DNA of 32,000 nt from Zymomonas mobilis subsp. mobilis ATCC 10988 (GCF_000175255.2 NC_017262.1:1890001-1922000); one strand, 5' to 3'. Positions 1 through 28,165 are shown, counted from the first letter of the stretch. Translations and numbers: made by a program. The notes: generated from the letters alone by a model not told the origin.

Positions 1-937
1 CATCAATCGCTCTACCAATACAAACAGCCCGAGCATGAGCAATCTCTTCGGTGTTATTATAATCTGGCTGCTTAGGAGGAAGGAGGTCTGGAGCGATTGT
101 TTTGAAAAGATGGATAATTTCATCTTTACCTAAATCGCCTGAAGCATAGGCATCTTCAAGATCAAGGATATTGTAGCAAATATCATCTGCGGCTTCGACC
201 AGAAAAACTAACGGATCACGCCGCCACCAGCAGCGATCATTCGTCTTTTCAGATTTTAGCTCAAGGGCTTCAGCCACTTCTTCAAAAAGAGCTAATTCAC
301 TTTTAAAAATACCGCTTTTTTTAAGACCGCAATAGGGGTGATCTGTAAAGGCCTGCTTTTGAATATCAGCTGTTACCGGATATTTAACAAAAGCTCCCAA
401 TACACCATAAGACAGGCGCATCCCTCCCTCATAGCGGTACATTTCAAGCTGGGTCAGCAAACGAAAGCCTTGGGCATTGCCGTCAAAACTCTTAAATTCT
501 TCTCTGTCTTCAGGCGCAATGGCTTTTAACAAAGGGGATGATTCTGCCATTTTTTGAGCGAACCACGCGCCGATGGCATTTTCTCCGGCATGACCAAAAG
601 GCGGATTGCCAATATCATGGGCAAGACAAGCCGCTTGAACAATCCCAGCAATAGTGTGGCGTTCTCCTTCTGTAATTTCCTTTTGATTTTCTAGCCAATG
701 ACCGATTTTTATACCCAAAGATCTTCCAACACTGGCGGTTTCAACGCTATGAATAAGACGATGATGAATATGGTCATTTTCATAAAGCGGATGAACTTGC
801 GTTTTATTCGCCAACCGCCGGAAAGCGGATGAAAAAGTAATCCGGTCTGCATCTTGAATAAAAGCAGGGCGATCCTGATTTTGCTGATAATCAGGTGCCG
901 ATAGCCGCTTGTGGCTCAGTAGTCTTTCCCATTTCAT
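1..937 (-). CDS. dgt: dGTP triphosphohydrolase-like HD-domain protein. Only the N-terminal ~312 codons are present; the 3' end runs off the window.
   Basis: Absent from the supplied ORF track because there is no stop codon in the window. My minus-strand translation from the ATG at 937-935 gives MKWERLLSHKRLSAPDYQQNQDRPAFIQDADRITFSSAFRRLANKTQVHPL..HIHHRLIHSVETASVGRSLG..ACLAHDIGNPPFGHAGENAI..FDGNAQGFRLLT..EAADDICYNILDLEDA. This is the classic dGTPase/HD signature. The frame stays open to position 1. Confidence 0.85.
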   Translation of the reverse strand, partial: MKWERLLSHKRLSAPDYQQNQDRPAFIQDADRITFSSAFRRLANKTQVHPLYENDHIHHRLIHSVETASVGRSLGIKIGHWLENQKEITEGERHTIAGIVQAACLAHDIGNPPFGHAGENAIGAWFAQKMAESSPLLKAIAPEDREEFKSFDGNAQGFRLLTQLEMYRYEGGMRLSYGVLGAFVKYPVTADIQKQAFTDHPYCGLKKSGIFKSELALFEEVAEALELKSEKTNDRCWWRRDPLVFLVEAADDICYNILDLEDAYASGDLGKDEIIHLFKTIAPDLLPPKQPDYNNTEEIAHARAVCIGRAID

Positions 938-1041
938 TTCGTCTATTCCAAAGAGATTTATTCAAATATCACTATAAAATAGGTCGCTTCGGGATAGAAA
1001 ACAGTCGGTCTTCCCTATTTTAATTTGATCAAGGTATTCCA

Positions 1042-4000
1042 ATGAAGCGTTTCTGGGCTGATCTCCATGTTCATTCCCGTTTTGCCCGTGCCACCAGCCG
1101 TAATCTTGATCTTGAGCATCTCGCCCTAGGTTCAGCGGAAAAAGGCATCCAGCTTGTTGCAACGGGGGATTGCACCTATCCGGCATGGCGGCAGGAAATG
1201 AAAGAAAGGCTTTACGCTGAAGGGAATGGCCTGTTTCGCCTCAAGCCTGAAATCGAACGTCCCCTCATGGCAACACTGCCTTCTGGTTGCCAAAAAGAAG
1301 TCCGCTTTATTATTTCGGGCGAAATTTCGACTATTTATAAAAAAGGCGATAAAACCCGAAAAGTGCATCATCTGGTGTATCATTCTTCCTTTGATGCGGC
1401 TGATCGCTTTGCAGAAAAATTGGCAAAGATCGGAAATATTGTTTCAGATGGCCGTCCAATTCTGGGTCTAGATTCACGGGATTTACTCGAAATAACCCTA
1501 GAATCTGGAAAAGATTCATGGCTCGCGCCGGCTCATATCTGGACGCCGTGGTTTTCTGCGCTGGGATCAAAATCAGGCTTTGATTCTATCGAAGAATGTT
1601 ATGGCGACTTGGCCAGCCATATTTTCGCCGCCGAAACCGGTCTGTCATCTGATCCTGAAATGAACTGGCGCGTTTCATCGCTTGACCGTTATCGTCTAAT
1701 TTCTAGTTCTGATGCGCATTCTCCGGCAAAATTGGGACGAGAGGCCACGCTTTTTTCCTGCGAAATGGGATTCCAGCCTCTCCGCCACGCCTTGGAAACA
1801 GGCGAAGGCTATGTGGGTACCGTTGAATTCTTCCCTGAAGAAGGCAAATACCATGCCGATGGGCATCGTAATTGTCATATTCGCCTTAATCCCAAAGAAA
1901 CTTTAGCTTTGGATGGCCTCTGTCCGGTTTGTGGCAAACCTCTTACGATTGGTGTTGCCCATCGGGTCGAGATGCTAGCTGACCGCGAAGAAGCCATTCC
2001 ACCCGCGACTGCAGGCGAGGTTAGCAGCCTGATTCCATTACCTGAAATTCTGGGGGAATTGCTGGGTGTAGGCTCCACCAGTCGCAAAGTTGCGGAACGC
2101 TACACCGAAAGTTTGCGGGTCTTAGGTTCTGAAATGGCGATTTTGCACCATGTTCCTTTGGAAGAGATGCAGGCCATCCATCCTTTATTGGAAGAGGCTA
2201 TTCGTCGTTTGCGGGCGGGCAAAGTCATCCGTCAGGCCGGATATGACGGGGAATATGGCGTTATTCGTTTATTTGAAAAAGAGGAAATGGAAAAACTGAC
2301 CAAGGGCGGCTTGCTTTTTCCGGTTACCGAGATGGTCAAGCCTTCACGCCGTCCGATAACAAAAACATCCTTACCTTCGGATGATAATCGCGCCTTTCAA
2401 GCCAGTCCTAACCTCCCCAATGTCGATCGAGAAGATCTCGCTAGAGATATCCCTAATTATCCGATGTTATCGACTTTGGATAGCGACCAAAAGGCTGCTG
2501 CTTTGATAACGGACAAAGCCTTGATGGTTCTCGCGGGACCCGGTTCCGGCAAAACCAAAATGCTGACCCAGCGCATCGCCCATCTGATACAGAAAAAGGC
2601 TATCCCTGCTGAAAAATGTCTGCTTCTCACTTTTACACGACGAGCCACTGACGAATTAAAGGCAAGGGTGAAGCAACTTCTGCCAGAAACGGAGAGCCCG
2701 CCGATTATTCATAGCTTCCATTCTTTGGCTCTCGATATGCTCAAAAAAGATAGCAAGGCTTTTGGTCTTGCTGCTGATTTCCGCATCGTGGATCCACAGA
2801 GTTTGAAAAAAGCCTTCATGGAAATGTCTAATCTATCTTCTAAAAGAGCAGATGAAGCATTGGAACGCTTTTCTCTTCTGAAAAAATCGGGAGAGGTCGG
2901 TGACCTCGAAGAAGAAATACTCCGTCAAAGCCTTGAAAATCTGAAACAAGACAATCACTGGCTCGACTTTGATGATCTTCTCATCAAGGTCGTTAATGGT
3001 TTGGAAAATAATGCGTCTTTGCGAGAAAAATGGGCAACTGCCTTTTCTTTTCTGTCAGTAGACGAATTTCAGGATATCGACATCTGGCAATATCGCCTTG
3101 TCTGGCTTCTGACGGGGAGGAATACCCAGCTAACCGTGATCGGTGATCCCGATCAGGCTATTTATCATTTTCGTGGGGCGGATTCCGAATGCTTCACCCG
3201 CTTACAACAAGATTTTCCTGAGATTGTCTGTCGTCGTCTTAATCGCAATTACCGTTCTATGGCTGATATTGTGGCGGCGGCCAATCGTATCATGCCAGAG
3301 AACAAGGGGCAGGCGTTACGAGGGCAGGGGGATAAAATTCTACTTTATCTAGCAAGTGATGAGGCGGATGAAGCCCGCTTTGTTGTCCAAAAGATAGAAG
3401 AATTGATGGGCGGCCATGACATGCTCACTGCCCAAAACGGGAAGAACACTGCGAAAAGCCAGGAAACAGCTTTCGGTTTTCGAGATTTCTCCGTGCTGTA
3501 TCGCCATAATTTTCAAGCCAAAGCTTTTGAGAAAGCCTTCAATCAGGCTGGCATCCCTTTCCGTAAAACAGCCCCCATTCCGATTACCTGCCATCTCGCA
3601 GTGAAAGCCTTTATCGAGAAAATTGAACAAAGCCCGCAAGAAACACTTCAAGATCGATTAATCGTGCTTAAAAATATCACCACTGAACTAGCACAGGAAA
3701 ATCAAGGAGAAGAGGCGGTTCTATCTCCGGCAGACAGGGAACAAGCCTATTCATGGCTCAAAATCATAGCGGAAAAATCTGGACAACAAAGCCATACTTT
3801 TTTCTTGGAGCAGATTGCCTTGGCAAATGAAGTCGATTTTCATGATCAACGAGGCGACAGAGTTTCTCTGATGACGATGCACGCATCAAAAGGACTGGAA
3901 TTCTCAGCTGTTTTTGTCACAGGTCTCGAGGAAGAAAATTTTAACCTGCATCATCAGCCTGATAATCCGACCGAAATAGCCGAGGAAAAACGCCTCTTCT

Positions 4001-4185
4001 ATGTCGCTTTAACGCGCGCTCGTGATTATCTGTTTCTAAGCTATGCTAAAAAACGCTTTATCTACGGCGAATATCAAAAACAGACCACTGCCGCTTTTCT
4101 CAATCTTTTAAAAGACATGCTTGTGACCGAGACACCTAAAAAACGTCTATTTAATGATAGAAAGGCGCAATACAGCCTATTCTAG
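1042..4185 (+). CDS. Fusion protein: endonuclease-Q-like PHP/Zn-finger nuclease domain (aa 1 to ~415) plus UvrD/PcrA-type SF1 DNA helicase (aa ~480-1047)
   Basis: 3144-nt ORF with AAGG 8 nt upstream of the ATG. N-terminal motifs: DLHVHSRFARATS..ATGD, SSSDAHSP, KYHADGHRNCH, CPVCGKPLTIGVAHRV (CxxC at nt 1921-1932), GYDGEYGVIRLF. C-terminal motifs: AGPGSGKT (nt 2533-2556), DEFQD (nt 3061-3075), GDPDQAIYHFRGA, NYRS, TMHASKGLEF, VALTRAR. Confidence 0.85.
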   Translation: MKRFWADLHVHSRFARATSRNLDLEHLALGSAEKGIQLVATGDCTYPAWRQEMKERLYAEGNGLFRLKPEIERPLMATLPSGCQKEVRFIISGEISTIYKKGDKTRKVHHLVYHSSFDAADRFAEKLAKIGNIVSDGRPILGLDSRDLLEITLESGKDSWLAPAHIWTPWFSALGSKSGFDSIEECYGDLASHIFAAETGLSSDPEMNWRVSSLDRYRLISSSDAHSPAKLGREATLFSCEMGFQPLRHALETGEGYVGTVEFFPEEGKYHADGHRNCHIRLNPKETLALDGLCPVCGKPLTIGVAHRVEMLADREEAIPPATAGEVSSLIPLPEILGELLGVGSTSRKVAERYTESLRVLGSEMAILHHVPLEEMQAIHPLLEEAIRRLRAGKVIRQAGYDGEYGVIRLFEKEEMEKLTKGGLLFPVTEMVKPSRRPITKTSLPSDDNRAFQASPNLPNVDREDLARDIPNYPMLSTLDSDQKAAALITDKALMVLAGPGSGKTKMLTQRIAHLIQKKAIPAEKCLLLTFTRRATDELKARVKQLLPETESPPIIHSFHSLALDMLKKDSKAFGLAADFRIVDPQSLKKAFMEMSNLSSKRADEALERFSLLKKSGEVGDLEEEILRQSLENLKQDNHWLDFDDLLIKVVNGLENNASLREKWATAFSFLSVDEFQDIDIWQYRLVWLLTGRNTQLTVIGDPDQAIYHFRGADSECFTRLQQDFPEIVCRRLNRNYRSMADIVAAANRIMPENKGQALRGQGDKILLYLASDEADEARFVVQKIEELMGGHDMLTAQNGKNTAKSQETAFGFRDFSVLYRHNFQAKAFEKAFNQAGIPFRKTAPIPITCHLAVKAFIEKIEQSPQETLQDRLIVLKNITTELAQENQGEEAVLSPADREQAYSWLKIIAEKSGQQSHTFFLEQIALANEVDFHDQRGDRVSLMTMHASKGLEFSAVFVTGLEEENFNLHHQPDNPTEIAEEKRLFYVALTRARDYLFLSYAKKRFIYGEYQKQTTAAFLNLLKDMLVTETPKKRLFNDRKAQYSLF

Positions 4186-4209: not shown

Positions 4210-4248
4210 AAGTCGATGCTCTTTCTTAGGGCATCGACTTATTTTTTA
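4210..4248 (+). terminator. Rho-independent terminator downstream of the nuclease-helicase gene
   Basis: Stem AAGTCGATGC (4210-4219) pairs with GCATCGACTT (4231-4240). It is followed by ATTTTTTATT. Confidence 0.75.
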
Positions 4249-4490: not shown

Positions 4491-7400
4491 ATGACGAAGC
4501 GAAAACTTTCAAAGCGTAGCCTTTGGCTAGCGGGGGTCACTTTTCTTATTCAAGCGGGGGTTACGTTAGCTTTTCCTTCATCTGCTGAAGCTATTGTTAT
4601 CAATGATAACGAAACACCGGACAGTGTTTTGGATCAGACTAATTTCACAGGCATTGGTCAAATGGTCACCGATACAAAAAACGGTAATCTGACGACATGC
4701 ACTGGCACTTTAATCAATCCAAGAACCGTTTTGTTCTCGGCACATTGTGTCAATAATGAAGCGGCGACCAGCTATGGTTCAGGGCAGGGCGGGACACCGG
4801 TCAGCTTTGGTTTCGCAGTGGATAATAAAGACGCCGTTACAAACTGGTTATCTTCGGGGCAACGTTATCAAACCAATGTCGGGCAAGGAATCTATACAGT
4901 CGAGCAGGTAAATTATAACCCTGCCTCGATTGATCCTTCCGGCAAAAACTATCTGCATAGCGATATCGCCACCGCTACGCTTGACACACCGGCCTCTGAT
5001 GTTCCGACATGGTCGTTGCTTTTTTCTCCACTGACCGGAAATAGCGGCAGTGCGGATAAAAATGGCACGGGTTATCATGTCTCGATCAGTGGTTACGGGA
5101 TGTCCGGCATCGGTTCGACAGGCGCTACAGAAGCCATAGATTACCGACGGCGTTCTGCCGAAAATATGTTGGGTGCCTTGGCTTCTATGAATGATGTCAC
5201 AGGATTTTTATCGAATACAGCTAATGGCTCAGCACAGAACCTCTATCAGTTTGATTTTGATGATCCGAAGAAAGGGCAGCAAGGGCGCAATCCGAACGAT
5301 ATTGATTTGTTCGGTGATACTGCGCTCCAGAAAGAAGGGATGACAGCTTCCGGTGATTCCGGCGGGCCCCTTATTCTGGATCAAAGTTTTTCGAAAGAGG
5401 TTGTGATCGGCGTTTTGTCCGGTGACAACCGCTATTTTCCAGATCAGGCAGAAAGCAGTTATGGCACATCTGCCTTTTACCAGCCGCTTTATCTTTATTG
5501 GCAATGGATAGCGGCTAATAATCCCTATCATTATGCCACAGCCAAAGCCGGTGATGGGAAATGGAGCGATCCCGACCACTGGTTAAGTCAGGTGGATCCC
5601 CATTATCAGATACTCGACAGCAACGGCCAATTGGTAAACGGTATTCCGTCTACGGCCGAAGCTGGAGAAAAAGGGGACAGCCCGAAATTCGGTAGCCTTT
5701 GCTACGACAACGGGACCAGCCGCTATTGCAAGACCTTAGCGACAGGAAATAATAGCAGTGGACAGGATGCCTTGCCCCAAGCCAGCTTGGAAAATGGTCT
5801 TCCCAATGCCAGTAATTTTGTGCCAGATAATCAAGAATCTGACCGATTAAGCGGTGCCAAAGCGCGCTATTTTGATATTACGCTCTCGGCTGACGGGACA
5901 ACCACGCTTGATATGAATGCCACGGTCGATCGCTTTGCGATAGATGGGGCAGGAGCAAAGCTCGATATCCAAAAAGGTTACCGTTTAAATAGCTTGATAG
6001 ATGTCACCCAATATAATGGCTGGATGAATGTTGATGGTGCGCTGGCAACATCGGGTGATTATGCCATTATCACAGGGCTATTAACAGGTAGCGGCAGCAT
6101 CACCACACCCTATCTGACCAATGTGGCGGGCGTTATTGCTCCGACGGGTAATCTTGCGGTTAATGGTAATCTTGTTCTGTCTTCAGGTAGCCAGCTTGCC
6201 ATTCGGCTAGGCGCAGATCAAACATCAGACAAGCTGACCATTAACGGCTTGGCTAATCTTGGGGGCGCTGTTCGTTTTTCAGCTTTATCGGGGTACAAAC
6301 CGCATAGCGGTGACAAATTTACCTTTCTTACAGCCAGTGACGGCTTATCGGGGCAGTTCGCTAATGCTTCCGGTATAGATGGCATCCTCAATCCGATTTT
6401 AAGCTATGACCAAAATAGCGTCACTGCGATTATAAAAATGAATAACTATCAGGATATTGTTGATAGCCATTCTTCGGTACAAAAAGCCTATGCTCAATTA
6501 CTCGATCAAAATCGCCAAGCGAATGGCACAGGATTGGATAATCTTTATACGCGTTTGGATTTGATGGATGCTGCCCATCTGCAATCGACGCTTGAATCGA
6601 TGGCACCTCGAAATGAAGCTACCATTCGTGCGTTAGATCGAGCGGGTAGCGAAAATATGACCCGTTTTTTCCGGCAACGCCTCAATCGGATCAATCATGA
6701 AGATATGGGTGGTAGCTTAGCTTTCTATGGGCAGCCTTTAGCTTTCGCCTCAGCTTCCTCTTCTCGTAGTTTGGGACAAAGACAGGCTTCGGATATCTCG
6801 GACATGGTTTCCCTGTCTCCCCATATTAAATTTGTCGATACGGTTAGCGCTTTTGTTGCTAGTGGCTATCTCAACGGTCATAACCAGTCGATGCCCTCTT
6901 CCAGCTTGTCCGGCCATGACAATTTTAATGGCTGGTTTTTGGCAGGCGGTGCCGAAATAGCGGCGACTCCCAAGGTGACAGCAGGTATCGGCTTTTCCTA
7001 TAGTAATTTGAATGGAGACAGTTCCAGCGGACAGACTAGTAAAGCCAGTCTGACTCAAGCGACGCTTTACGCTTCTTATAAATTACCGGCTAAATTAATT
7101 TTATCCGGTCAGGTTAGCGGCGGCGTTTTCAGCAGCACGAATAAAAGACGGGGGAGCATCGACAGCCTGAATTACAATTTTAGGCAAAAAGGCTCTTCTT
7201 TCAGTGGTTCAGCTGAAGTCGTCTTGGGACGAGATATTGATCTATCCCATTTGATCATTACGCCTAATATCGCCGTTCGAGGGCAAAAAACCGATGGGAA
7301 CAATCTGACCGATCGGGCCTTAGATGGAAGCGACAGCAGCGCGGCCTTAGAATTATACCGCAAGGCTTATAATTCTGTTCAGACAAGAGCGGGTTTTGAC

Positions 7401-7691
7401 ATCTCTGGTGAAGTCAAAACGCGCGGCGTGACCTTGGTTCCTCATACCAGCGCCCATTATGTCCATGAATTATTGCATCCATCGCAATCGGTAGCAGCCC
7501 GTTTTGTCAATGGTGTTGGTGGCAATGCTGCCTTTATACTCCCCAATAGCGATCATAACTGGGGCGAAGTTGAAGGCGGTCTTAAAATAAAAGGACGTCG
7601 TATTGATTTCGACATTTCGGCTGGCACGGTCTTTGGTCGTCAGGATTTGGCCTATAACGCCTATCGTGGATCGATAACCTATCATTTCTGA
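4491..7691 (+). CDS. Type Va autotransporter with a trypsin-fold (S1-like) serine protease passenger domain
   Basis: GGGGGA lies just upstream of the ATG. Signal peptide MTKRKLSKRSLWLAGVTFLIQAGVTLAFPSSAEA. Catalytic-triad contexts TVLFSAHCV (His), HSDIATATL (Asp) and GDSGGPL (Ser, nt 5352-5372). A long Gly/Asn/Thr-rich passenger follows. The C-terminal ~280 aa form amphipathic beta strands ending in RGSITYHF, with the terminal aromatic typical of OM barrels. Confidence 0.85.
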   Translation: MTKRKLSKRSLWLAGVTFLIQAGVTLAFPSSAEAIVINDNETPDSVLDQTNFTGIGQMVTDTKNGNLTTCTGTLINPRTVLFSAHCVNNEAATSYGSGQGGTPVSFGFAVDNKDAVTNWLSSGQRYQTNVGQGIYTVEQVNYNPASIDPSGKNYLHSDIATATLDTPASDVPTWSLLFSPLTGNSGSADKNGTGYHVSISGYGMSGIGSTGATEAIDYRRRSAENMLGALASMNDVTGFLSNTANGSAQNLYQFDFDDPKKGQQGRNPNDIDLFGDTALQKEGMTASGDSGGPLILDQSFSKEVVIGVLSGDNRYFPDQAESSYGTSAFYQPLYLYWQWIAANNPYHYATAKAGDGKWSDPDHWLSQVDPHYQILDSNGQLVNGIPSTAEAGEKGDSPKFGSLCYDNGTSRYCKTLATGNNSSGQDALPQASLENGLPNASNFVPDNQESDRLSGAKARYFDITLSADGTTTLDMNATVDRFAIDGAGAKLDIQKGYRLNSLIDVTQYNGWMNVDGALATSGDYAIITGLLTGSGSITTPYLTNVAGVIAPTGNLAVNGNLVLSSGSQLAIRLGADQTSDKLTINGLANLGGAVRFSALSGYKPHSGDKFTFLTASDGLSGQFANASGIDGILNPILSYDQNSVTAIIKMNNYQDIVDSHSSVQKAYAQLLDQNRQANGTGLDNLYTRLDLMDAAHLQSTLESMAPRNEATIRALDRAGSENMTRFFRQRLNRINHEDMGGSLAFYGQPLAFASASSSRSLGQRQASDISDMVSLSPHIKFVDTVSAFVASGYLNGHNQSMPSSSLSGHDNFNGWFLAGGAEIAATPKVTAGIGFSYSNLNGDSSSGQTSKASLTQATLYASYKLPAKLILSGQVSGGVFSSTNKRRGSIDSLNYNFRQKGSSFSGSAEVVLGRDIDLSHLIITPNIAVRGQKTDGNNLTDRALDGSDSSAALELYRKAYNSVQTRAGFDISGEVKTRGVTLVPHTSAHYVHELLHPSQSVAARFVNGVGGNAAFILPNSDHNWGEVEGGLKIKGRRIDFDISAGTVFGRQDLAYNAYRGSITYHF

Positions 7692-7805
7692 TAGAGAACC
7701 ATGTCCTCAAGATAACAAACAGAAATACGCGTTTATTATACATTCTTTTTTCGGGCAGGTGATTCTCTATTACAGATAATCCTGCCTATCATGATGTATA
7801 AAAAA

Positions 7806-7840
7806 GGCCGCTCCCTAGAATAAGGAGCGGCCATTATTTT
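7806..7840 (+). terminator. Rho-independent terminator of the autotransporter gene
   Basis: Perfect 9-bp stem GGCCGCTCC (7806-7814) / GGAGCGGCC (7824-7832), followed by ATTATTTT. Confidence 0.7.
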
Positions 7841-8222
7841 GCCAGTGAGCAAGGGGGCTTACTCAATCACCTGACGATTATACACAGCAATATGGAGCTA
7901 ATTGCCGCATAAAGTGGATTTATTACGGTTAAAATCGTTTAAATCCACCTAATCCCTGTAACAAAAATAAAAGATAGTTCAATTATGGATGTAATATTTT
8001 TTACGTAAATTTTTTTTTAAGCCATCATGAAAAATTAAATATAAAGTCCACCCGCACGTCCTCTTTTGGCTTTGATCGCTTTTATTCCCTGATTTTGTTT
8101 TTATAGAAGTTCCGCTTTCTATCGACTATCATAGCTATCAATCAGATCAATGGCCGGATAAAATCGGCTGATTTTGTCACGACTATTCTATTGTCTTATC
8201 CAGTAAAAAAGGCCGGAATCAG

Positions 8223-9419
8223 GTGAATATATACGAATATCAGGCGATGGCTCTTTTGAATGAACGGGGTGTCTCGGTTGTCCCCGGTTATATGGCCGCC
8301 AATGTAGAAGAAGCCGTCAAAGCGGCAGAACAGCTTTCCTCTCCTCCTTATGTCATCAAATCCCAGATTCTAGCCGGTGGTCGCGGCAAGGGGTATTTCC
8401 GCGAATCTCCGAAAGAGGGCGGTGGCGTCCGTTTGGTCTCTGATATCGCCGCTGTCAAAAAACAGGCAGAATCAATGCTCGGTCGGCATTTGGTCACTGC
8501 CCAGACGGATGATCAGGGTATTCCGGTTGAAAAACTGTTGATTACCGAAGCTGTCTCTATTGCTCGCGAATTTTATCTTTCCCTGTTGGTTGATCGCCAG
8601 ACGGGGCGGGTGACCTTTGTCGCTTCACCCGAAGGCGGTATGGATATCGAAACCGTTGCCAAAGAAAAACCGGAAGCTATTCACCGTATCGCTATTGATC
8701 CAGCAACAGGCTTCCAACCACATCATGGTCGGATGATTGGTTTTGCGCTGGGCTTGTCCGGTGATGTCTTCAAACAAGGCATCAAATTAGCCGCCAGCTT
8801 GTATAAAGCCTTTACGACTTCGGATATGAGTCTGCTTGAAATCAACCCCTTGGTCGAAACCAATGACGGTAAACTTTTACCCGTTGATGCCAAAATCAGC
8901 TTTGACGATAATGCGCTATTCCGCCACCCTGATATTGCGGCCTTAGGGGAAGCAGGTGCTTCTGATCCTTTGGAACAAGAAGCCCGTCAGGCCGGTTTAT
9001 CCTATATCAAGCTGGATGGTAGCATCGGCTGCATGGTCAATGGTGCAGGGCTTGCTATGGGAACGATGGATATAATCCAGCTTCATGGCGAGATGCCTGC
9101 CAACTTCTTGGATGTCGGTGGCGGTGCCAGCAAAGAAAAGGTGGCTGCCGCTTTTCGGATTATTCTTTCTGACCCATCCGTCAAAGGTATTTTGGTCAAT
9201 ATCTTCGGTGGAATTATGCGTTGCGATATCCTCGCAGAAGGCATTATCGCCGCCGCTCGTGAACTGGATATAACAGTGCCTTTGGTCGTCCGGTTAGAAG
9301 GCAACAATGTTAACGAAGGTAAGGCCGCTCTTGTCTCTTCAGGATTGCCTATTATTACAGCCAGTGATCTCGGCGATGCCGCTCAAAAAATCGTAGCCGC
9401 TATCCGGCAGACTGCCTGA
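8223..9419 (+). CDS. sucC: Succinyl-CoA synthetase (ADP-forming) beta subunit
   Basis: GTG start. The product [72 protein letters not shown] is full-length and colinear with SucC (ATP-grasp plus CoA-ligase domains). Confidence 0.85.
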
Positions 9420-9481
9420 TATTTCAGCTTTCGGTAACACTAACTCCAGCATGCTTCATAAATCGGCAAAGGGAGATTCTG

Positions 9482-10231
9482 ATGAAAGTAATAGTGCCCG
9501 TTAAACGTGTGATTGATTATAATTTGAGACCAAGGGTGAAAACTGATGGCTCAGGAATCGATCTTTCCAATCTTAAAATGTCTCTCAACCCGTTTGATGA
9601 GATCGCGGTCGAAGAAGCCGTTCGGCTGAAAGAAAAAGGCATCGCCAAAGAAGTCGTTCTGGTTTCTATCGGCGTTTCCAAAGCACAGGATCAGTTGAAA
9701 ACCGGTATGGCCATCGGGGCCGACCGCAGCATCTTGATCGAAACCGAAGAAAATGTTGAACCGCTTCACGTCGCCAAATTACTAAAAGCTGTTGTCGATC
9801 AGGAAAAACCAGATTTGGTTATTGCCGGTAAGCAGGCCATTGATGACGACTCCAATCAGACTGGGCAGATGTTGGCAGCGCTACTCGGCTGGCCACAGGG
9901 ATGCTTTGCTTCCAAATTGACGATTGCCGATAATAAAATTGAAGTTACGCGCGAGATTGACGGCGGCCTTGAAACCATCAGCCTCAATCTTCCGGCAGTG
10001 GTTACTTCCGATTTGCGTTTGAACGAACCACGCTTTGTTTCACTTCCCAATATTATCAAAGCACGGAAAAAGCCGATTGAAATCAAAAAGCCGGAAGATT
10101 TCGGTATTGATATCACGCCCCGTTTAAAAACCCTAAAAGTCGAAGAGCCTCCTGTGCGTCAGGCGGGTGAAAAAGTGGAATCCGTAGAAGAATTCGCAGC
10201 GAAACTCAAAGAATGGGGAGTCGGAGCATGA
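9482..10231 (+). CDS. etfB: Electron transfer flavoprotein beta subunit
   Basis: AGGGAG RBS 6 nt upstream. [80 protein letters not shown] matches the ETF-beta pattern. Confidence 0.9.
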
Positions 10232-11160
10232 GCGTTCTTGTCCTGATTGATTATAGCGGCGATGTCCTCGACGAAGGCAGCTTGTCAGCTATCACCGCCG
10301 CTTTTCAGATTGACAGCGAAGTCGATCTCTTGGTCGCTGGTGACAATATCCGTGTGGTTGCTGAAAAAGCTGCCAAGATTAAAGGCGTGCATAAAGTCCT
10401 GCTGGCTGATTCTCCAGTCTATGCTTCGTCTTTGGCTGAAAATATCGCACCTTTGGTCGTGAAATTGGCCGATTCCTATCAGGCGATCGTCGCCTCTGCC
10501 AATTCCAACGGTAAAAATATTGCTCCTCGCGTCGCGGCGTTATTGGATAGCCAACAAATATCGGAAATCATCACGGTCGTTTCCTCTGATACTTTCCGCC
10601 GTCCGATTTATGCGGGTAATGCCATTGCGACAGTGCAATCGGCTGACAGCAAAAAAGTTATTACGGTTCGGGCAACGGCTTTTGAAAAGGCCGAAGCTGA
10701 AGGTGGCGATGCTCCTATTGAAGCTGTCGATGCTACGGAAGATAGCGGTCTTTCCCGCTTTATTTCAGTAGATCTACAGCAATCCGGTCGCGCTGATCTC
10801 AGCACAGCACCTCTTGTTGTGTCTGGCGGTCGCGCTTTGGGTTCGCCTGAAAAATTCCACGAATTGATCGAAGGTTTTGCTGACCGTGTCCATGCGGCAG
10901 TAGGGGCTTCTCGCGCTGCGGTCGATTCCGAATATGCCCCCAATGATTGTCAGGTCGGACAGACTGGTAAAATCGTGGCACCGGAAGTCTATATCGCCGT
11001 CGGTATCTCTGGCGCTATCCAGCATCTCGCTGGCATGAAAGATTCCCGCAAGATTGCGGCTATCAATATCGACCCCGAAGCCCCGATTTTCCAGATTGCC
11101 GATATTGGTCTGGTCGGTGATCTTTTCGAAGTCATGCCAGCCTTGATCGAAAAATTCTAA
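10228..11160 (+). CDS. etfA: Electron transfer flavoprotein alpha subunit
   Basis: ATGA start/stop overlap with etfB (ATG 10228-10230, TGA 10229-10231). MSVLVLIDY.. The C-terminal FAD-binding region is [56 protein letters not shown]. The track start at 10213 is probably an upstream extension. Confidence 0.9.
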
Positions 11161-11244: not shown

Positions 11245-11447
11245 TATCAACTGGCTTCACGCCTCTCTTTTTTCAAAGAGATAATCTTGGTCAATTTGTT
11301 ATCTTCGCTTCCCATCCTCGCCGTTACGGTTCTAATAAAGTTCGATATTCTCAATAGTCTGGCAATGAGTCGTCAAAATAGTTTGAAACTGTTCTAAGAC
11401 GACGCCGTTCTGTAAGTGAGATAGATAAACCTGCTCAAAAGGCAGAA

Positions 11448-12200
11448 ATGCCGATAGTCCTTAATGTCTGGCAGGTATCAATGGAGAAGAAGATGACCGA
11501 AGCCGAATGGTGGGAATTTGAAAATGTCGAAGCTATGGCAAAACAGATTGCCGACGACATCGAATTTATTATCAAGCAAGCCATTGAGAAAAAAGGCCGT
11601 GCTTTAATCATCGTTCCGGGTGGTTCTACACCGAAACTGGTTTTCCCGACGCTCGCGGCCCGTGACCTCGATTGGTCAAAAGTAACGCTGATGCTGACCG
11701 ATGACCGTCTGGTTGCCAAAGATAATCCGTTAAGCAATTTTGGCCTTCTGACCAAACATTTCGGCAATAGCGGTGCTGAACTGGTCTCCTTGATTGATGA
11801 AAATTATCTGGATGACCGCGCTGCCGCTGGCCGTGCCGCAGACCAGAAACTGGCTTCTTATAAATGGCCTGCCGATCTCGTTTGGTTGGGTATGGGGAAT
11901 GATGGCCATACCGCTTCTATTTTCCCAGGACCTAATTTCGACGAAGCTGTTAACGGGCCCCGTGAACGCCGCGCTCTTGGCCTTCTTCCGGTTCCGTTAC
12001 CGCCAGAAGCACCGGTTGCCCGCGTAACCCTTAGCTTGTCCACGCTGGCTTCTGCTCATACTGTTATGGTGGTTATCACTGGCGATCATAAACGCACGGT
12101 TCTGACCGATGCTTTGAAAGAAGGCGCTTCCAGCCGTCTTCCGGTTGGCCGCGTTCTCGGTGAAACCGAAGCCTCCATCGATGTGTACTGGAGCAAATAA
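11448..12200 (+). CDS. pgl: 6-phosphogluconolactonase (Entner-Doudoroff / pentose phosphate pathway)
   Basis: ALIIVPGGSTPKLVFPTLA..DWSKVTLMLTDDRLV..WLGMGNDGHTASIFPG matches the Pgl/NagB-fold signature. The start is uncertain: in-frame ATGs at 11448, 11481 and 11493. Confidence 0.85.
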   Translation: MPIVLNVWQVSMEKKMTEAEWWEFENVEAMAKQIADDIEFIIKQAIEKKGRALIIVPGGSTPKLVFPTLAARDLDWSKVTLMLTDDRLVAKDNPLSNFGLLTKHFGNSGAELVSLIDENYLDDRAAAGRAADQKLASYKWPADLVWLGMGNDGHTASIFPGPNFDEAVNGPRERRALGLLPVPLPPEAPVARVTLSLSTLASAHTVMVVITGDHKRTVLTDALKEGASSRLPVGRVLGETEASIDVYWSK

Positions 12201-21347: not shown

Positions 21348-21492
21348 CGTCTACCACTCGCTACTATCAAAAAATATTCCGGTTGATCGCTAAAAGATAA
21401 ACTTTAATACGGCAAAATATTTACAAGCTATTTTCCTATATCAAAATTATTAAAAAATTACGTTCTTGATATATAAAATTTTAGAGAGGGTT

Positions 21493-22821
21493 ATGTCGAA
21501 TAAACGAGACCGGACAGAGTCAAATCATTCGCAAGATACGTCCGATAATGCAGCCTCTCAATTGACCAAAGAAGAATGGCGCGCTGCCATACGCTTCGAC
21601 AGCACAGATATCGGCTGGATTGTTATGAGTATCGGCATGGCAATCGGGGCAGGGATCGTCTTCCTCCCAGTTCAAGTCGGCTTGATGGGCATTTGGGTTT
21701 TCCTGCTTTCTGCCGTTGTCGGTTATCCCGGCATGTATATGTTTCAGCGGTTATTTATAAATACGCTGGCATCGGCTACCGTCAGTCAAACTTATCCAGA
21801 TATGATTTCTAGCTATTTAGGGCGCAAATGGGGGCTTTTTCTGGGTGCGCTTTATTTCGTCATGCTAACCATCTGGATGTTCATCTACGCTACTGCCATC
21901 ACACGGGATAGCGCCTCTTACCTACAGAGTTTTGGTGTTACCCATAAACTCCTGTCCCAAACTTCATGGTATCCGCTTGTTCTCATGATTATTCTGGTGG
22001 CACTGGCTTCGCGTGGCGAACGGATGCTGTTTAAATTATCGGGATTAATGGTTCTGACCAAGCTGCTTATCGTGGCTGCCTTGGGAATATTTATGATTCC
22101 ACAATGGAATTTTGCTAACCTTGGTTCGGTTCCACCAACGGGCAGCTTGATTTCAAAAGCTATTATCACATTACCTTTTACGCTGACTTCTATTCTGTTT
22201 ATTCAGACTTTAAGCCCGATGGTTATTTCTTATAGAGCCCGTGAAAAATCGCCCGAAGTTGCCCGTCATAAAGCCTTGCGGGCAATGAATATTGCTTTTG
22301 CCATTTTGTTTATAACGGTTTTCTTCTACGCGATATCTTTCACACTTGCGATGAGCCATGAAAGCGCGGTTTCCGCCTATCAACAGAATATTTCGGCTCT
22401 CGCCATCATGGCACAAATATTCCCAGCCAGTTCAGTTGGCCTGATTGGTGTTGTTCTGAATATATTTGCAGTGATGACAGCCTTTTTCGGGGTCTATCTT
22501 GGCTTTCGTGAAGCCTGCGTCGGAATTTTTACAACGATATGGTCACGCTGGGTGCCTTCTGAAAAATTGCAAGGGCACTGGCTTCAATATGGTGTAATGA
22601 TTTTTGCCGTTTTACTGGCATGGGGTGCTGTTATCGTTAACTTGCCGGTGTTGTCTTTCACGACATTTTGCAGTCCGATTTTCGGGATCATCGGATGCCT
22701 TATTCCCGTTTGGCTCGTCATGAAGCGGCCAGCCCTGTCAAAATATCGTGGAGCAGGTCTTATCTTCATCGCGATCATTGGTATTCTTTTATGCCTGTCA
22801 CCTTTTGTGACATGGCTATAG
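21493..22821 (+). CDS. HAAAP-family amino-acid permease (SdaC/TdcC-like serine/threonine transporter)
   Basis: AGAGAGG RBS before ATG 21493; the track start at 21466 is a TTG extension. DIGWIVMSIGMAIGAGIVFLPVQVG near the N-terminus and KRPALSKYRG near the C-terminus parallel E. coli TdcC/SdaC (GTAIGAGVLFLP, KAPSLAKYRG). About 11 TM segments. Confidence 0.8.
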   Translation: MSNKRDRTESNHSQDTSDNAASQLTKEEWRAAIRFDSTDIGWIVMSIGMAIGAGIVFLPVQVGLMGIWVFLLSAVVGYPGMYMFQRLFINTLASATVSQTYPDMISSYLGRKWGLFLGALYFVMLTIWMFIYATAITRDSASYLQSFGVTHKLLSQTSWYPLVLMIILVALASRGERMLFKLSGLMVLTKLLIVAALGIFMIPQWNFANLGSVPPTGSLISKAIITLPFTLTSILFIQTLSPMVISYRAREKSPEVARHKALRAMNIAFAILFITVFFYAISFTLAMSHESAVSAYQQNISALAIMAQIFPASSVGLIGVVLNIFAVMTAFFGVYLGFREACVGIFTTIWSRWVPSEKLQGHWLQYGVMIFAVLLAWGAVIVNLPVLSFTTFCSPIFGIIGCLIPVWLVMKRPALSKYRGAGLIFIAIIGILLCLSPFVTWL

Positions 22822-23301: not shown

Positions 23302-25083
23302 TTACTGGAAAGGAAAATAACGGAAGGTAACATAGAGGGTGTTACCGGATGTTGTTGGACGAACGGCATTAGCGCCAGAGAAAGCAAATTTCTTGATATA
23401 GGTATATTGTAGCCCACCCATGACGCTACCGTAAGAGCCATGAAGCATATGCCACCAGCCTCCCAAGGTAAAAGACGCTAACGTATGGGTCTGGGCATTA
23501 CAGACACCAAATTCGACATTACAGCCGCTTAAATCCTGATCGTCTATGCCATATCCATATTGGGAACCATCGGCACCCATATAACGGCGACGACCAGCCG
23601 TCTCGACCCCGCCATAGCTATATAACAGAATGGACGGCGTTGGATGTCCAATTAAACCCATTGCTCCAATAATTTCGGGGACAGGGGATAGTAACCCCCG
23701 ACTATTAAAACTTGTATCTGGCAACATCGTTGGGCCATATCGCCCGATACCTTCTCCAGCCAAAATATTACCGGTAAGCTGTAATTTATCTGCTATTAAC
23801 GGGACAGTCATGCCCGCACCGATACCGCCCCCGAAATGGGTGTGTTTTTCACTAGTCGTCGCCCCAACGGGGACAGACAAAGAGCGAAACCAACGAGCAA
23901 GTCCAAAGATTTCATAATGCCCGAACCGCGTATCAGCCGCCGTCTTTAACACAATATCCGGTGCCGGATTATAGGTGTAAACCGTATTGCTGTTCAGCAA
24001 GACACCACCGGAATTTTCATAAAATATTTTAGGACCCATTGTCTCGCCATAGGCCGCCGGTAAACGCCCACCAGAAGGCACGGACGAAGAAAAGGCAACG
24101 GTTGCTTGGGGATCTTCCAAAGAAAGGCCTACCCAATATTTTTTATTCCAGTCTTTTTCAAAACGGATTTGGGGCACACGGGTAAAGCTGATACCCGGTA
24201 TCTGGTTGTTATCGGTTACAGGGGGTAATTGTTCCTGTCTCGGTAATAGGCCTTTGCTATAATTCGTGACCAAACTCCATGCTTGCCCCATTAAAACATG
24301 GAAACCCCACTCATTTTGAGTGAAGGTGAAATAGCCTTGGCGCAAACGCGGGGTGTAACCACTAATCTGGATGCTATTGGTCGTATTGGCCGCGCCTCCA
24401 AAATCACTTTCCAGATAGGCCTGTAATTGAATGGATTTTGTCGGATCGGCCTCTAACAAAACCGAACTGCGGGTCAATTGAGACGACAGTCGTTCTTCAT
24501 CTAACCCATGATTGGGACTATTCGCATAAGGGAAATTGTTCCATGCGGTGGCAGGGCCACTGGTCATATTCGAGCTACGCCAAATATTCGATAGCTCGAC
24601 GAAGCCTCCTAACTTAACAGACACATTCCCAATACTGAAAACCGGCGGCAACCTGTCAACAGCCGTCTGGGTGATAGCTGCAGGGCTAGATGATTTTAAA
24701 TCAATAGAGGAATGAGGGGGGCTATTTTGACTACTGGCTTTGATGGGCGCGGTATTCGGGGGCGGTAAAGACATCCAATGCGGGGCAGGGGACAGCGATT
24801 TCGCACCGCTATCAGAAGAACTAGAGGGGGGCAGCTGACGCTCAGTATTGGTTTGAATAACGGCCGATTTTTCCTTCTCTTTTCTTTGTTCGATCGCATC
24901 CACTTTTTCCATAAGCTGACGGATTTGTAGTTTGATCGCGGCTAACTCTTGGTCGTCCTTTTCATCAGCCAAAGCTGGTTGATGAAAAGCGCCGATCAAA
25001 AGAAGCGCAATCATACTACCAAGGCCGGTTCTACTGGATTTTAACCGGCCTTTTAATAATCGAAATGTTTCTTGAAAAAACAC
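23302..25083 (-). CDS. Outer-membrane porin-like protein with an N-terminal coiled coil and a Ser/Pro-rich linker
   Basis: GTG start. Signal peptide ..MIALLLIGAFHQPALA. Heptad-like segment DEKDDQELAAIKLQIRQLMEKVDAIEQRKEKEK. Low-complexity linker PPSSSSDSGAKSLSPAP..SSQNSPPHSS. About 440 aa of alternating beta-strand pattern end in YVTFRYFPFQ. The architecture recalls DcaP-type trimeric porins (from memory, unverified). Confidence 0.7.
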   Translation of the reverse strand: MFFQETFRLLKGRLKSSRTGLGSMIALLLIGAFHQPALADEKDDQELAAIKLQIRQLMEKVDAIEQRKEKEKSAVIQTNTERQLPPSSSSDSGAKSLSPAPHWMSLPPPNTAPIKASSQNSPPHSSIDLKSSSPAAITQTAVDRLPPVFSIGNVSVKLGGFVELSNIWRSSNMTSGPATAWNNFPYANSPNHGLDEERLSSQLTRSSVLLEADPTKSIQLQAYLESDFGGAANTTNSIQISGYTPRLRQGYFTFTQNEWGFHVLMGQAWSLVTNYSKGLLPRQEQLPPVTDNNQIPGISFTRVPQIRFEKDWNKKYWVGLSLEDPQATVAFSSSVPSGGRLPAAYGETMGPKIFYENSGGVLLNSNTVYTYNPAPDIVLKTAADTRFGHYEIFGLARWFRSLSVPVGATTSEKHTHFGGGIGAGMTVPLIADKLQLTGNILAGEGIGRYGPTMLPDTSFNSRGLLSPVPEIIGAMGLIGHPTPSILLYSYGGVETAGRRRYMGADGSQYGYGIDDQDLSGCNVEFGVCNAQTHTLASFTLGGWWHMLHGSYGSVMGGLQYTYIKKFAFSGANAVRPTTSGNTLYVTFRYFPFQ

Positions 25084-27568: not shown

Positions 27569-28165
27569 TTAAGGCTCTTTTACCTTCTGGAATGAAGCCA
27601 ACCATCCATTGCGTTTCAAGGTGTCAATGAGGGTTGAGCGAGGTATCTTAAAGCTCCGGCAAACAGAAGCCTTGCTGGCACCGCTTTCAAGGGCGATTTT
27701 AATCTGTTCTAACTGTTCCTTGTCGATCGTTGGTGGCCGACCACCACGCCGTCCCCGTTTTCTTGCCGCCTCTAACCCCGCCATAATGCGTTCACGGGTC
27801 AAAGCGCGTTCATATTGCGCCAAAGCACCAAATAACGAAAACAGCAATTCACCATGGGGTGTATTCGTATTCATCTGTTCAGTCAGGGAATGAAAGGCAA
27901 TATCACGCGCTTTTAAATCTGTGATGATCGATAATAAATGAGGCAGAGATCGCCCTAAGCGATCCAGTTTCCAGACTATCAATTCATCGCCCGATTTCAA
28001 ATATTCAAGGCATTTTTTTAAACCAGGGCGATCATCTTTTGCGCCCGAAGCCTTATCAAAGAACAGATTCCGCTCATCAACGCCCGCCGCAATCAAAGCA
28101 TCTCGTTGTAGATCAACAGATTGGCGATCATCTGCTGATGACACGCGCATATAGCCAATGAGCAT
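27569..28165 (-). CDS. Serine recombinase of the small resolvase/invertase family (Gin/Hin/Pin-like)
   Basis: MLIGYMRVSSADDRQSVDLQRDAL..DRPGLKKCLEYLKSGDELIVWKLDRLGRSL..ALAQYERALTRERIMAGLEAARKRGRRGGRPP plus a C-terminal HTH (ASVCRSFKIPRSTLIDTL). Nearly colinear with phage Mu Gin as I remember it. The catalytic Ser lies in RVSS. Confidence 0.9.
   Translation of the reverse strand: MLIGYMRVSSADDRQSVDLQRDALIAAGVDERNLFFDKASGAKDDRPGLKKCLEYLKSGDELIVWKLDRLGRSLPHLLSIITDLKARDIAFHSLTEQMNTNTPHGELLFSLFGALAQYERALTRERIMAGLEAARKRGRRGGRPPTIDKEQLEQIKIALESGASKASVCRSFKIPRSTLIDTLKRNGWLASFQKVKEP

Follow-up and report, generated by a model that had tools for sequence, protein, structure and literature searches.

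What would a bacterial cell gain from carrying a lesion-nicking endonuclease and a DNA helicase in one polypeptide, and how would such a protein be brought to its substrate? The question is raised by a gene of Zymomonas mobilis subsp. mobilis ATCC 10988 that lies in a 32,000-nucleotide stretch of the chromosome (GCF_000175255.2, NC_017262.1:1890001-1922000), here called the window, whose positions are counted from its first letter. The gene is a single open reading frame (ORF) running from ATG to stop at 1042..4185 (+) and encodes 1047 amino acids (aa) plus the stop codon. An initial annotation of the window had described it as an uninterrupted fusion of an EndoQ-like nuclease to a UvrD-like helicase; the frame is indeed unbroken, and all twelve of the sequence strings quoted in that description occur at the expected places in the protein. 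The exact protein is present in public databases as AEH63449.1/WP_014501178.1 of the same strain, where WP_014501178.1 is annotated as a 'UvrD-helicase domain-containing protein'. Judged by homology, it is an EndoQ with an added motor of helicase superfamily 1A (SF1A), and it is already catalogued in the literature as an EndoQ homologue. We propose, with a probability of roughly 60%, that it acts as a single-polypeptide, sliding-clamp-tethered nick-then-unwind repair enzyme for deaminated and abasic sites, and that it represents the long bacterial form of EndoQ. The proposal is based on a complete EndoQ module, a complete SF1A helicase, and a clamp-type motif in the disordered segment that follows each of them.

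The nuclease and helicase modules

The N-terminal module was recognized by a phmmer search of the PDB, in which aa 6-413 aligned with residues 5-385 of Pyrococcus furiosus EndoQ (PfuEndoQ; 5zb8/7k30-33) at an E-value of 2e-47. The alignment runs end to end at about 30% identity and spans all three EndoQ domains, which in the crystal structure of the archaeal enzyme comprise residues 1-238 (PHP), 239-303 (Zn-binding), and 304-400 (helical) (PMC5961232). In the Z. mobilis protein, the PHP-type catalytic domain corresponds to aa 1-264 (1042..1833, +), as delimited by alignment to 5zb8/7k30 and by residue invariance in 121 sequences, and contains the strings DLHVHS (aa 7-12), ATGD (40-43), and SSSDAHSP (221-228). 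The Zn-binding domain, placed by alignment and by its predicted ligands, occupies aa 265-331 (1834..2034, +) and includes KYHADGHRNCH (269-279) and CPVCGKPLTIGVAHRV (294-309). The C-terminal helical domain, assigned by alignment and Foldseek, extends over aa 332-413 (2035..2280, +) and terminates in GYDGEYGVIRLF (400-411); its counterpart in the precomputed annotations of orthologous proteins is Pfam MJ0043_C. A structural comparison with the P. furiosus enzyme, which had been suggested along with the first description, gave the same picture: the AlphaFold2 model, built on a 74-sequence alignment with a mean predicted local distance difference test score (pLDDT) of 80, superimposes on 5zb8 in Foldseek with a template modelling (TM) score of 0.83-0.84 and a root-mean-square deviation of about 4 Å over 400 residues.

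Residue equivalences were established by aligning PfuEndoQ with the window protein and 120 homologues in MAFFT. The two-metal site of PfuEndoQ is formed by H8, H10, E76, H84, H139, and D193, and R114 and H195 are essential (PMC5961232, PMC8307549); the corresponding residues are H9, H11, E94, H109, H165, and D224, together with R138 and H226, and all of these catalytic positions are invariant in 121/121 family members. The lesion pocket of the archaeal enzyme consists of H139, T142, E167, L168, G169, L170, S171, N191, and D193, with W144 on an adjoining loop (PMC5961232, PMC8307549). Seven of these nine residues and the loop tryptophan are identical in the Z. mobilis protein, where the pocket is made up, besides the shared metal ligands, of T168, E198, T199, G200, L201, S202, and S222, with W170 on the loop; the equivalents of T142, W144, E167, G169, L170, and S171 are likewise invariant in 121/121. 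The Zn ligands C249, C252, C268, and C271 of PfuEndoQ (PMC5961232) correspond to a predicted set H275-C278-C294-C297, the finger being of the H/C/C/C type in all 121 members, so that C249 is replaced by histidine and the ligand set is otherwise kept. Although the local Pfam copy returned no match within aa 1-420, the possibility that this region is a generic PHP domain was ruled out because the search of PDB sequences, the mapped residues, and Foldseek each point specifically to EndoQ. The EndoQ-like module of the initial annotation is thus confirmed as to its three domains and intact active site (aa 6-413): by homology, the first 413 aa are an EndoQ homologue with a complete two-metal active site and lesion pocket. 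Such a module would be expected to nick DNA on the 5' side of deoxyuridine (dU), deoxyinosine (dI), deoxyxanthosine (dX), and abasic (AP) sites.

The two modules are separated by a stretch of about 62 aa (aa ~414-475), close to the ~65 aa originally estimated, most of which (aa 422-467; 2305..2442, +) is predicted to be disordered, with pLDDT below 50. Across the family the linker has a median length of 83 aa, with quartiles of 82-89.

The UvrD/PcrA/Rep-type SF1A helicase core follows at aa 476-1003 (2467..4050, +) and was identified by Pfam, PDB search, family alignment, and Foldseek. Both UvrD-helicase (5e-60) and UvrD_C (1e-40) score above their Pfam gathering thresholds, the best solved relatives are PcrA (1pjr, 2e-66), Rep, and UvrD, and the Foldseek TM score to PcrA/UvrD structures is 0.68. 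The full series of SF1 motifs attributed to this half is present, from the Q motif (Q483) through I (AGPGSGKT, 498-505), Ia (530-535), II (DEFQD, 674-678), III (GDPDQAIY, 701-708), IV (NYRS, 736-739), and V (TMHASKGLEF, 945-954) to VI (VALTRAR, 988-994), and the key motif residues are invariant in the 74-sequence family alignment. On its scores, the module is nevertheless not an orthologue of UvrD, PcrA, or Rep, because the equivalog models return 338 bits for PcrA and 311 and 289 bits for the other two, only about a third of the NCBIfam cut-offs of 911, 951, and 965. In the fusion protein the motor would be expected to move in the 3'-to-5' direction.

Two modifications distinguish this helicase from the solved structures. 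The 2B subdomain (aa ~841-930; 3562..3831, +) is shortened according to the PDB alignment, the AlphaFold2 model, and interval lengths: PcrA residues 385-518, which make up most of 2B, have no aligned counterpart in the window protein, and the interval from the GIP sequence to motif V measures 110 aa here and in the proteobacterial clade, compared with 146-220 aa in long forms from Firmicutes and Desulfobacterota. The subdomain is therefore roughly half-size, and in the proteobacterial clade it falls about 40-110 aa short of that in proteins P0231, P0171, P0219, and P0250, which accounts in part for the overall difference between lengths of about 1030 aa and of 1130-1250 aa. The C-terminal extension of PcrA/UvrD (about 70 aa) is replaced by a short basic tail that bears a clamp motif. 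Since 2B is autoinhibitory in Rep and UvrD and is trimmed here, it may be speculated that the motor could be active as a tethered monomer.

Clamp-type motifs and the long bacterial form

The strongest clue to how the enzyme is deployed is a pair of clamp-type motifs that the initial annotation did not contain. The last five residues of the protein, QYSLF (aa 1043-1047; 4168..4182, +), end a basic tail that is disordered in the AlphaFold2 model (aa 1035-1047, pLDDT below 50), and they fit the bacterial beta-clamp-binding consensus QL[D/S]LF. A Qxx[LMIF]F terminus is found in 113/120 close homologues and a QxxLL terminus in 5 more. In a set of 227 full-length proteins, 175 carry the motif within their last 12 aa, against an expected 0.0005, the expectation being derived from the frequency of the motif elsewhere in the same proteins. 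The actinomycete fusions (loci L026, L030, L035, L041, and L046-L075) terminate in QLRLL/QLRLI and not in QLxLF, which looks like a lineage-specific version of the motif.

A second, internal motif, GGLLF (aa 422-426; 2305..2319, +), marks the start of the linker 15 aa after the EndoQ module, also where pLDDT is below 50. An xx[LM]LF sequence is present at this fixed +15 offset in 114/115 close homologues, with L425 and F426 invariant in the family alignment. Among diverse representatives, 85/113 have xxx[LMIF]F at the internal site, and in 61 of these it takes the form Qxx[LMIF]F, against 0.003 expected. The layout of the fusion can accordingly be written as [EndoQ-motif 1]-linker-[helicase-motif 2]. 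Stand-alone or split EndoQs end at exactly the position of the internal motif (L069, L077, and L083; QLTLF, QLALF, and QMTLF before the stop), and in the split pairs L069, L083, and L019 the helicase protein in turn terminates in QMTLF or QLTLF. On this comparison, the fusion looks like the welding of two already neighbouring clamp clients. By analogy with archaeal EndoQ on PCNA, QYSLF, and perhaps also GGLLF, would dock the protein on the beta clamp, DnaN.

The joined form is common. More than 120 full-length homologues, about 1000-1100 aa long and 50-93% identical, were retrieved from a set of 5.8 billion proteins; they belong to Alphaproteobacteria (Bradyrhizobium, Rhodoplanes, Pelagibacterium, Chelatococcus, Labrys, Telmatospirillum, and others) and some Betaproteobacteria. 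An exhaustive HMMER search with aa 1-420, run against 1.84 billion representatives of clusters at 50% identity, matched 3523 clusters at E ≤ 1e-3, of which 1049 reached E ≤ 1e-30; nearly all of the 150 best representatives are 1000-1200 aa long, and 122 of them have both a Walker A and a DExQD sequence. Examples are a 1249-aa protein of Neomoorella glycerini and one of 1169 aa from a Desulfosarcinaceae bacterium. In a scan of GTDB, with one genome per species, a relative is encoded in at least 542 species from many phyla. Among the best 80 loci of that scan, which were analysed individually, 56 of the 73 ORFs that reach a stop codon encode fusions that are 900 aa or longer and have helicase motifs. 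These 80 loci come from Alphaproteobacteria, Binatia, Myxococcota, Melainabacteria, Endomicrobia, Planctomycetota, Verrucomicrobiota, Actinomycetota (Micromonospora, Kutzneria, Saccharopolyspora, and others), Chloroflexota, Bacteroidota, Gemmatimonadota, Acidobacteriota, Desulfobacterota, Clostridia, and Omnitrophota. An origin of the fusion in a sequencing artefact or frameshift is ruled out by the hundreds of fused orthologues, complete genomes included, and the single-polypeptide architecture holds up well in the taxonomic survey that had been proposed for it. To judge from its recurrence, the fusion is real, old, widespread, and under selection. A second protein of the fusion/helicase family, 1005 aa long, is encoded in Vampirovibrio (L037) divergently from, and adjoining, the fusion gene (4955-7972, - and 7998-10862, +).

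Other members of the family are not joined. Stand-alone EndoQ-like genes of ~420-450 aa with no helicase nearby occur at six loci (L006, L028, L039, L045, L077, and L079), and split pairs, in which a stand-alone EndoQ is followed directly by a separate UvrD-like helicase of ~505 aa, at three: L069 (8001-10904) and L083 (8001-10971), both from Omnitrophota, and L019 (8001-10923), from Gastranaerophilales. In L069 and L083 both genes terminate in Q[LM]TLF, and in L019 the helicase gene alone does so; the latter split could be a frameshift in a metagenome-assembled genome.

Part of this picture has been published. Shiraishi et al. (2016, Sci Rep 6:25532) reported that bacterial EndoQ homologues carry beta-clamp motifs with the consensus QL[D/S]LF, and their Supplementary Figure S1 tabulates bacterial homologues, of which 10 are short (401-464 aa) and about 34 long (941-1244 aa), including 'Zymomonas mobilis WP_011241259, 1043 QYSLF 1047', an orthologue of the window protein. 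The restriction of EndoQ to Thermococcales, some other archaea, and a few Bacillus, as assumed at the outset, was therefore out of date, many bacterial phyla having been tabulated in 2016. The word 'helicase' is absent from that paper, and full-text searches turned up no description or test of the helicase fusion, although a 2017 paper, which as cited in Miyazono et al. (2018) sorted EndoQ into three families by domain organization, two of them bacterial, may describe the architecture. The statement that no EndoQ-UvrD fusion had been characterized thus stands as far as those searches go, but novelty must be claimed more modestly since the Z. mobilis protein is already listed as an EndoQ homologue: its EndoQ nature and its C-terminal clamp motif are both published. 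As far as can be told, what is new here is the scale of the distribution, the second, internal motif, and the split-gene forms with a motif on each gene.

A repair model and its alternatives

EndoQ flips out dU, dI, dX, or an AP site and cuts immediately 5' of it, leaving a 3'-OH and a 5'-phosphate (PMC4357722). Because it then stays attached to the DNA that it has nicked, it is restricted to a single turnover (PMC5961232). The archaeal enzyme attaches to PCNA by its C-terminal PIP box, and the clamp stimulates it (PMC4858679); a model of the archaeal pathway invokes a helicase together with FEN1, polymerase, and ligase after the nick (PMC8438529). A motor coupled to the nuclease has a direct rationale in this setting because EndoQ is product-inhibited by its own nick. 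SF1A helicases translocate in the 3'-to-5' direction and can start at nicks. In the repair model favoured here, a beta clamp left on the DNA would recruit the protein through QYSLF, possibly also through GGLLF, and the EndoQ module would flip out a dU, dI, dX, or AP site and nick immediately 5' of it, leaving a 3'-OH and a lesion-bearing 5'-phosphate. The tethered 3'-to-5' helicase could then load at the nick, the intact strand being the simplest choice, and move downstream, lifting the lesion-bearing 5'-phosphate strand and at the same time freeing the nuclease from the nicked product to which it is bound. Resynthesis would fall to a polymerase held by that clamp, and a 5' nuclease and ligase would complete the repair.

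This model has a more ambitious version, in which EndoQ would exist in nature mainly in its helicase-fused form with two clamp tags, and this form would be a self-contained excision machine that needs no glycosylase. The dimeric beta clamp would then serve as a tool-belt, one protomer holding the nuclease-helicase via either motif and the other holding the polymerase, and the enzyme's own motor would turn the nick into a displaced strand, thereby supplying the missing step downstream of EndoQ. Repair by EndoQ would on this view be a widespread bacterial pathway and not a speciality of hyperthermophilic archaea. This version is put forward tentatively, with its chances set somewhat below even.

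Several observations weigh against the repair model. For the long form, the specificity of nicking, the polarity of the helicase, the coupling of the two modules, and binding to the clamp are all carried over from homologous proteins, and the AlphaFold2 model (predicted TM score, pTM, 0.52) provides no confident inter-module geometry. In the lesion pocket, L168 is replaced by threonine in all 121 family members, and N191, which is asparagine in 114/121, is serine in the Zymomonas clade only. The DNA-contact positions R251 and K276 also differ from PfuEndoQ, the change of K276 to threonine being fixed, and R201 to lysine is a further fixed difference; because pocket and DNA-contact positions are substituted, the substrate range may not be that of the archaeal enzyme. 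The NCBIfam model TIGR00375 matches with an E-value of 3e-44, but its 151.8 bits fall below the curated cut-off of 326.6, the model evidently having been trained on short EndoQ forms. The internal motif is degenerate in the proteobacterial clade, which has lost the glutamine, so that GGLLF of this clade may no longer bind the clamp. Z. mobilis also carries ung and another gene of the uracil-DNA glycosylase superfamily, with which an EndoQ pathway would be redundant. The distribution of the family is patchy, and identity across phyla (54-69%) is as high as within Alphaproteobacteria, which together suggest horizontal spread. Finally, some Z. mobilis assemblies contain shortened alleles, named 'endonuclease Q family protein' by NCBI: a partial one of 467 aa (P0285) and a frameshifted one of 493 aa (P0280), identical to the window protein at 460/493 positions, which tracks it to about aa 468 (nt ~2445) before the frame changes. 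The helicase half seems dispensable at least in strains with the 493-aa allele, unless that allele is a sequencing error.

Four other readings were considered. The protein could be an accessory helicase of the replication fork, akin to Rep, PcrA, and UvrD and recruited by the clamp, whose nuclease deals with fork structures, ribonucleotides, or other lesions and not with deaminated bases. The close similarity of the motor to PcrA, Rep, and UvrD is what such a role would lead one to expect, the two clamp motifs place the protein at replication sites, and the departures from PfuEndoQ in pocket and DNA-contact residues leave room for a different substrate. However, the residues reported to exclude T and A from the pocket (H139, G169, and S171 in PfuEndoQ; PMC8307549) are invariant together with all catalytic residues, and stand-alone close relatives retain the clamp motif without a helicase, which makes the nuclease the constant element of the family. 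A primary role at the fork is accordingly held to be unlikely.

It is improbable, too, that the protein is an effector against phages or other foreign DNA, for example dU-containing phage DNA, an alternative that had been raised in the initial annotation and for which the context (neighbours, PADLOC, and phage and plasmid scans) lends no support. It might even be the same as Wukong, a CRISPR-supervised defence protein of similar size (about 1026 aa) with an N-terminal PHP exonuclease and a C-terminal ATPase, both active sites of which are required for defence (bioRxiv 10.1101/2024.12.27.630466). A review mentions an antiviral role suggested for bacterial EndoQ, along with its insensitivity to the phage protein Ugi (PMC8307549). 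In PADLOC the helicase half is matched by GajB-type models, and the distribution of the family is patchy and looks horizontally spread. Yet the GajB matches reflect generic UvrD similarity and the EndoQ half has no PADLOC match; no GajA-like, cas, or restriction gene is found among the larger ORFs scanned in the window; and the 146 immediate neighbours of more than 80 loci include neither a recurrent defence family nor any neighbour shared across phyla. None of 50,697 phage records matches the EndoQ module, and of 72,556 plasmids one does, with a distant stand-alone gene on a 733-kb Brevibacillus replicon. Wukong itself is described as a non-specific DNase that accepts single-stranded DNA as well as blunt, overhang, and forked forms, is under repression by a crRNA-like RNA, and is encoded in a type I-C locus between cas3 and cas5c; the window gene, with no cas families among the larger window ORFs or the 146 neighbours, is set apart from it by description only. 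In our own reading, clamp-docking motifs after each module fit repair better than immunity.

We regard as about equally improbable the view that the two modules work independently, fusion giving no more than co-expression and joint recruitment to the clamp, with no hand-off of the nick. A long, disordered linker and a low pTM are in keeping with it, as are the split versions, in which each protein has its own clamp motif, and the six EndoQ-like relatives that have no helicase nearby. Against it, fusion or strict same-order adjacency is kept across many phyla, the length of the linker is tightly conserved, and the product inhibition of EndoQ favours a coupled motor. That the gene is decaying or inactive, as a pseudo-enzyme or a local assembly artefact, is scarcely credible despite the truncated alleles and, if the gene is ZMO1484, a weak promoter, given that the 1047-aa ORF is intact in 13 of the 15 listed named members of the 24-member Z. 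mobilis cluster, that the catalytic residues of both modules are invariant, and that there are hundreds of fused orthologues.

Published accounts place EndoQ in Thermococcales, some methanogens, and 'a few bacteria' and describe the steps after the nick as unclear (PMC5961232, PMC4357722, PMC8438529). The present data point the other way, with relatives in at least 542 bacterial species, most of them joined covalently to a UvrD-type motor, and helicase-driven strand displacement on a sliding clamp is offered as an answer to what follows the nick. A clamp-tethered nick-then-unwind enzyme would provide a glycosylase-free repair route for uracil, hypoxanthine, and AP sites, which should resist phage inhibitors of the Ugi type as reported for B. 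subtilis EndoQ (PMC8307549). EndoQ already serves as a reagent in deaminase assays (PMC11234013), a setting in which a mesophilic, ATP-driven version could be useful.

Related systems and the surrounding genes

The known proteins closest to the fusion each lack one or more of its parts. Archaeal EndoQ (P. furiosus PF1551 and T. kodakarensis TK0887; 5ZB8, 7K30-33) has the same three-domain nuclease, with identical metal ligands and, as noted above, most of the pocket, and likewise a clamp-interaction motif after the nuclease module. It differs in having a C4 finger, Leu168, K276, and a PIP box, in place of which the window protein has an HCCC finger, two threonines, and a motif of the bacterial QxxLF type, to which are added the linker of ~60 aa, the 570-aa SF1A helicase, and the second clamp motif. 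Bacillus-type EndoQ (B. pumilus/B. subtilis), the only bacterial EndoQ assayed biochemically (PMC5961232), also has the EndoQ fold, is annotated as an 'endonuclease Q family protein', and is about 25% identical to the nuclease module described here, which is about equally far from the archaeal type. The Brevibacillus EndoQ is 393 aa long and has a C4 finger, no helicase, and no C-terminal QxxLF. The long bacterial EndoQ homologues of Shiraishi et al. (2016) belong to the same family as the window protein.

On the helicase side, UvrD, PcrA, and Rep share its motifs and the 1A/1B/2A architecture. A UvrD-like SF1A motor is also joined covalently to a nuclease in AddA, RecB, and AdnB. There the nuclease, a C-terminal PD-(D/E)XK domain, works on DNA ends as part of heteromeric complexes; in the window protein it is an N-terminal PHP-type nicking module, of presumed lesion specificity, and there is no conserved partner gene. 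For Gabija (GajA plus GajB), the PADLOC matches cover the generic helicase core only, and the window gene is flanked by a dGTPase-like HD-domain gene and an autotransporter gene, not by an OLD-family GajA. NucS/EndoMS provides a parallel in deployment: its archaeal members bind PCNA and its actinobacterial members use a C-terminal beta-clamp motif, the same swap of clamp motif between domains of life as in EndoQ, although it has an unrelated fold, acts on mismatches, cuts both strands, and is not fused to a helicase.

The fusion gene looks monocistronic. Upstream, an intergenic region of 104 bp (938..1041) is shared with a divergent dGTPase-like gene (1-937, minus strand; Pfam HD, HDIGNPPFGH) that runs off the start of the window. 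This gene also accounts for the seemingly ORF-free stretch of ~1 kb before the fusion gene, in which ARAGORN and Rfam searches for an RNA gene were negative. Downstream, a terminator-like hairpin of 13 pairs followed by a T-run (4210..4240, +), found by consensus scan only, begins 25 nt after the stop codon. The intergenic region contains no SOS-type GTTC-N7-GTTC box, which we take to be the alphaproteobacterial LexA-box consensus; the lone exact match in the window, at 11329-11343 (+) between etfA (ending at 11160) and the 6-phosphogluconolactonase gene (starting at 11448), may well be due to chance. The gene is probably ZMO1484, 'UvrD/REP helicase', to which it was mapped via the strain ZM4 accession AAV90108.1 and the matching product name. 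According to expression data for ZMO1484, its promoter is constitutive but weak, and the gene is induced in 5% ethanol along with ung and radC. The fusion gene is read as a stand-alone chromosomal gene that, if the assignment is right, is weakly expressed. Z. mobilis being an industrial ethanologen, induction of the probable locus under ethanol stress is of interest in that context.

Examination of gene neighbourhoods, as called for in the initial annotation, was carried out and yielded neither a partner shared across phyla nor a defence context. Clustering of all ORFs in more than 80 loci revealed no neighbour family common across phyla, and a conserved operon partner such as a ligase, polymerase, or exonuclease was rejected, the neighbour clusters found in at least 8 loci belonging mostly to Micromonosporaceae and related actinomycetes. 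Pfam and PADLOC searches of the 146 immediate neighbours disclosed no recurrent repair or defence partner; the counts of note are Metallophos (10) and RdgC (3). A calcineurin-like phosphoesterase gene (Metallophos) lies directly upstream of the fusion gene in the same orientation, at about 6500-7900 (+), in the five loci checked directly, all of Micromonosporaceae (L046, L053, L062, L066, and L071), and in further loci of that family, and may be a lineage-specific operon partner there. The stand-alone EndoQ gene of Brevibacillus (L084) is preceded by a gene for a NUDIX nucleotide-pool hydrolase that ends 2 nt before it, a parallel with the dGTPase neighbour in Z. mobilis that may be coincidence.

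The window surrounds the fusion gene with housekeeping neighbours. Downstream of it are, in order, an autotransporter gene, sucC, etfBA, pgl, a TonB-dependent receptor gene, bipA, and transport genes. Farther along are two ORFs of 451 and 593 aa without a Pfam match and, among the transporter genes, a serine resolvase/invertase gene (21466-22821, +; 23302-25083, -; and 27569-28165, - for these ORFs and the resolvase region). The neighbours of the fusion gene differ in Z. mobilis subsp. pomaceae and in Pseudothauera. The autotransporter, a protein of 1066 aa with a trypsin-like protease domain, is encoded at 4491-7691 (+) between the fusion gene and sucC; in subsp. pomaceae (L001, 5046-11123) the fusion gene is divergent from sucC across a 1.7-kb gap in which no autotransporter is called. 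A local rearrangement has thus occurred between the ATCC 10988 and subsp. pomaceae loci.

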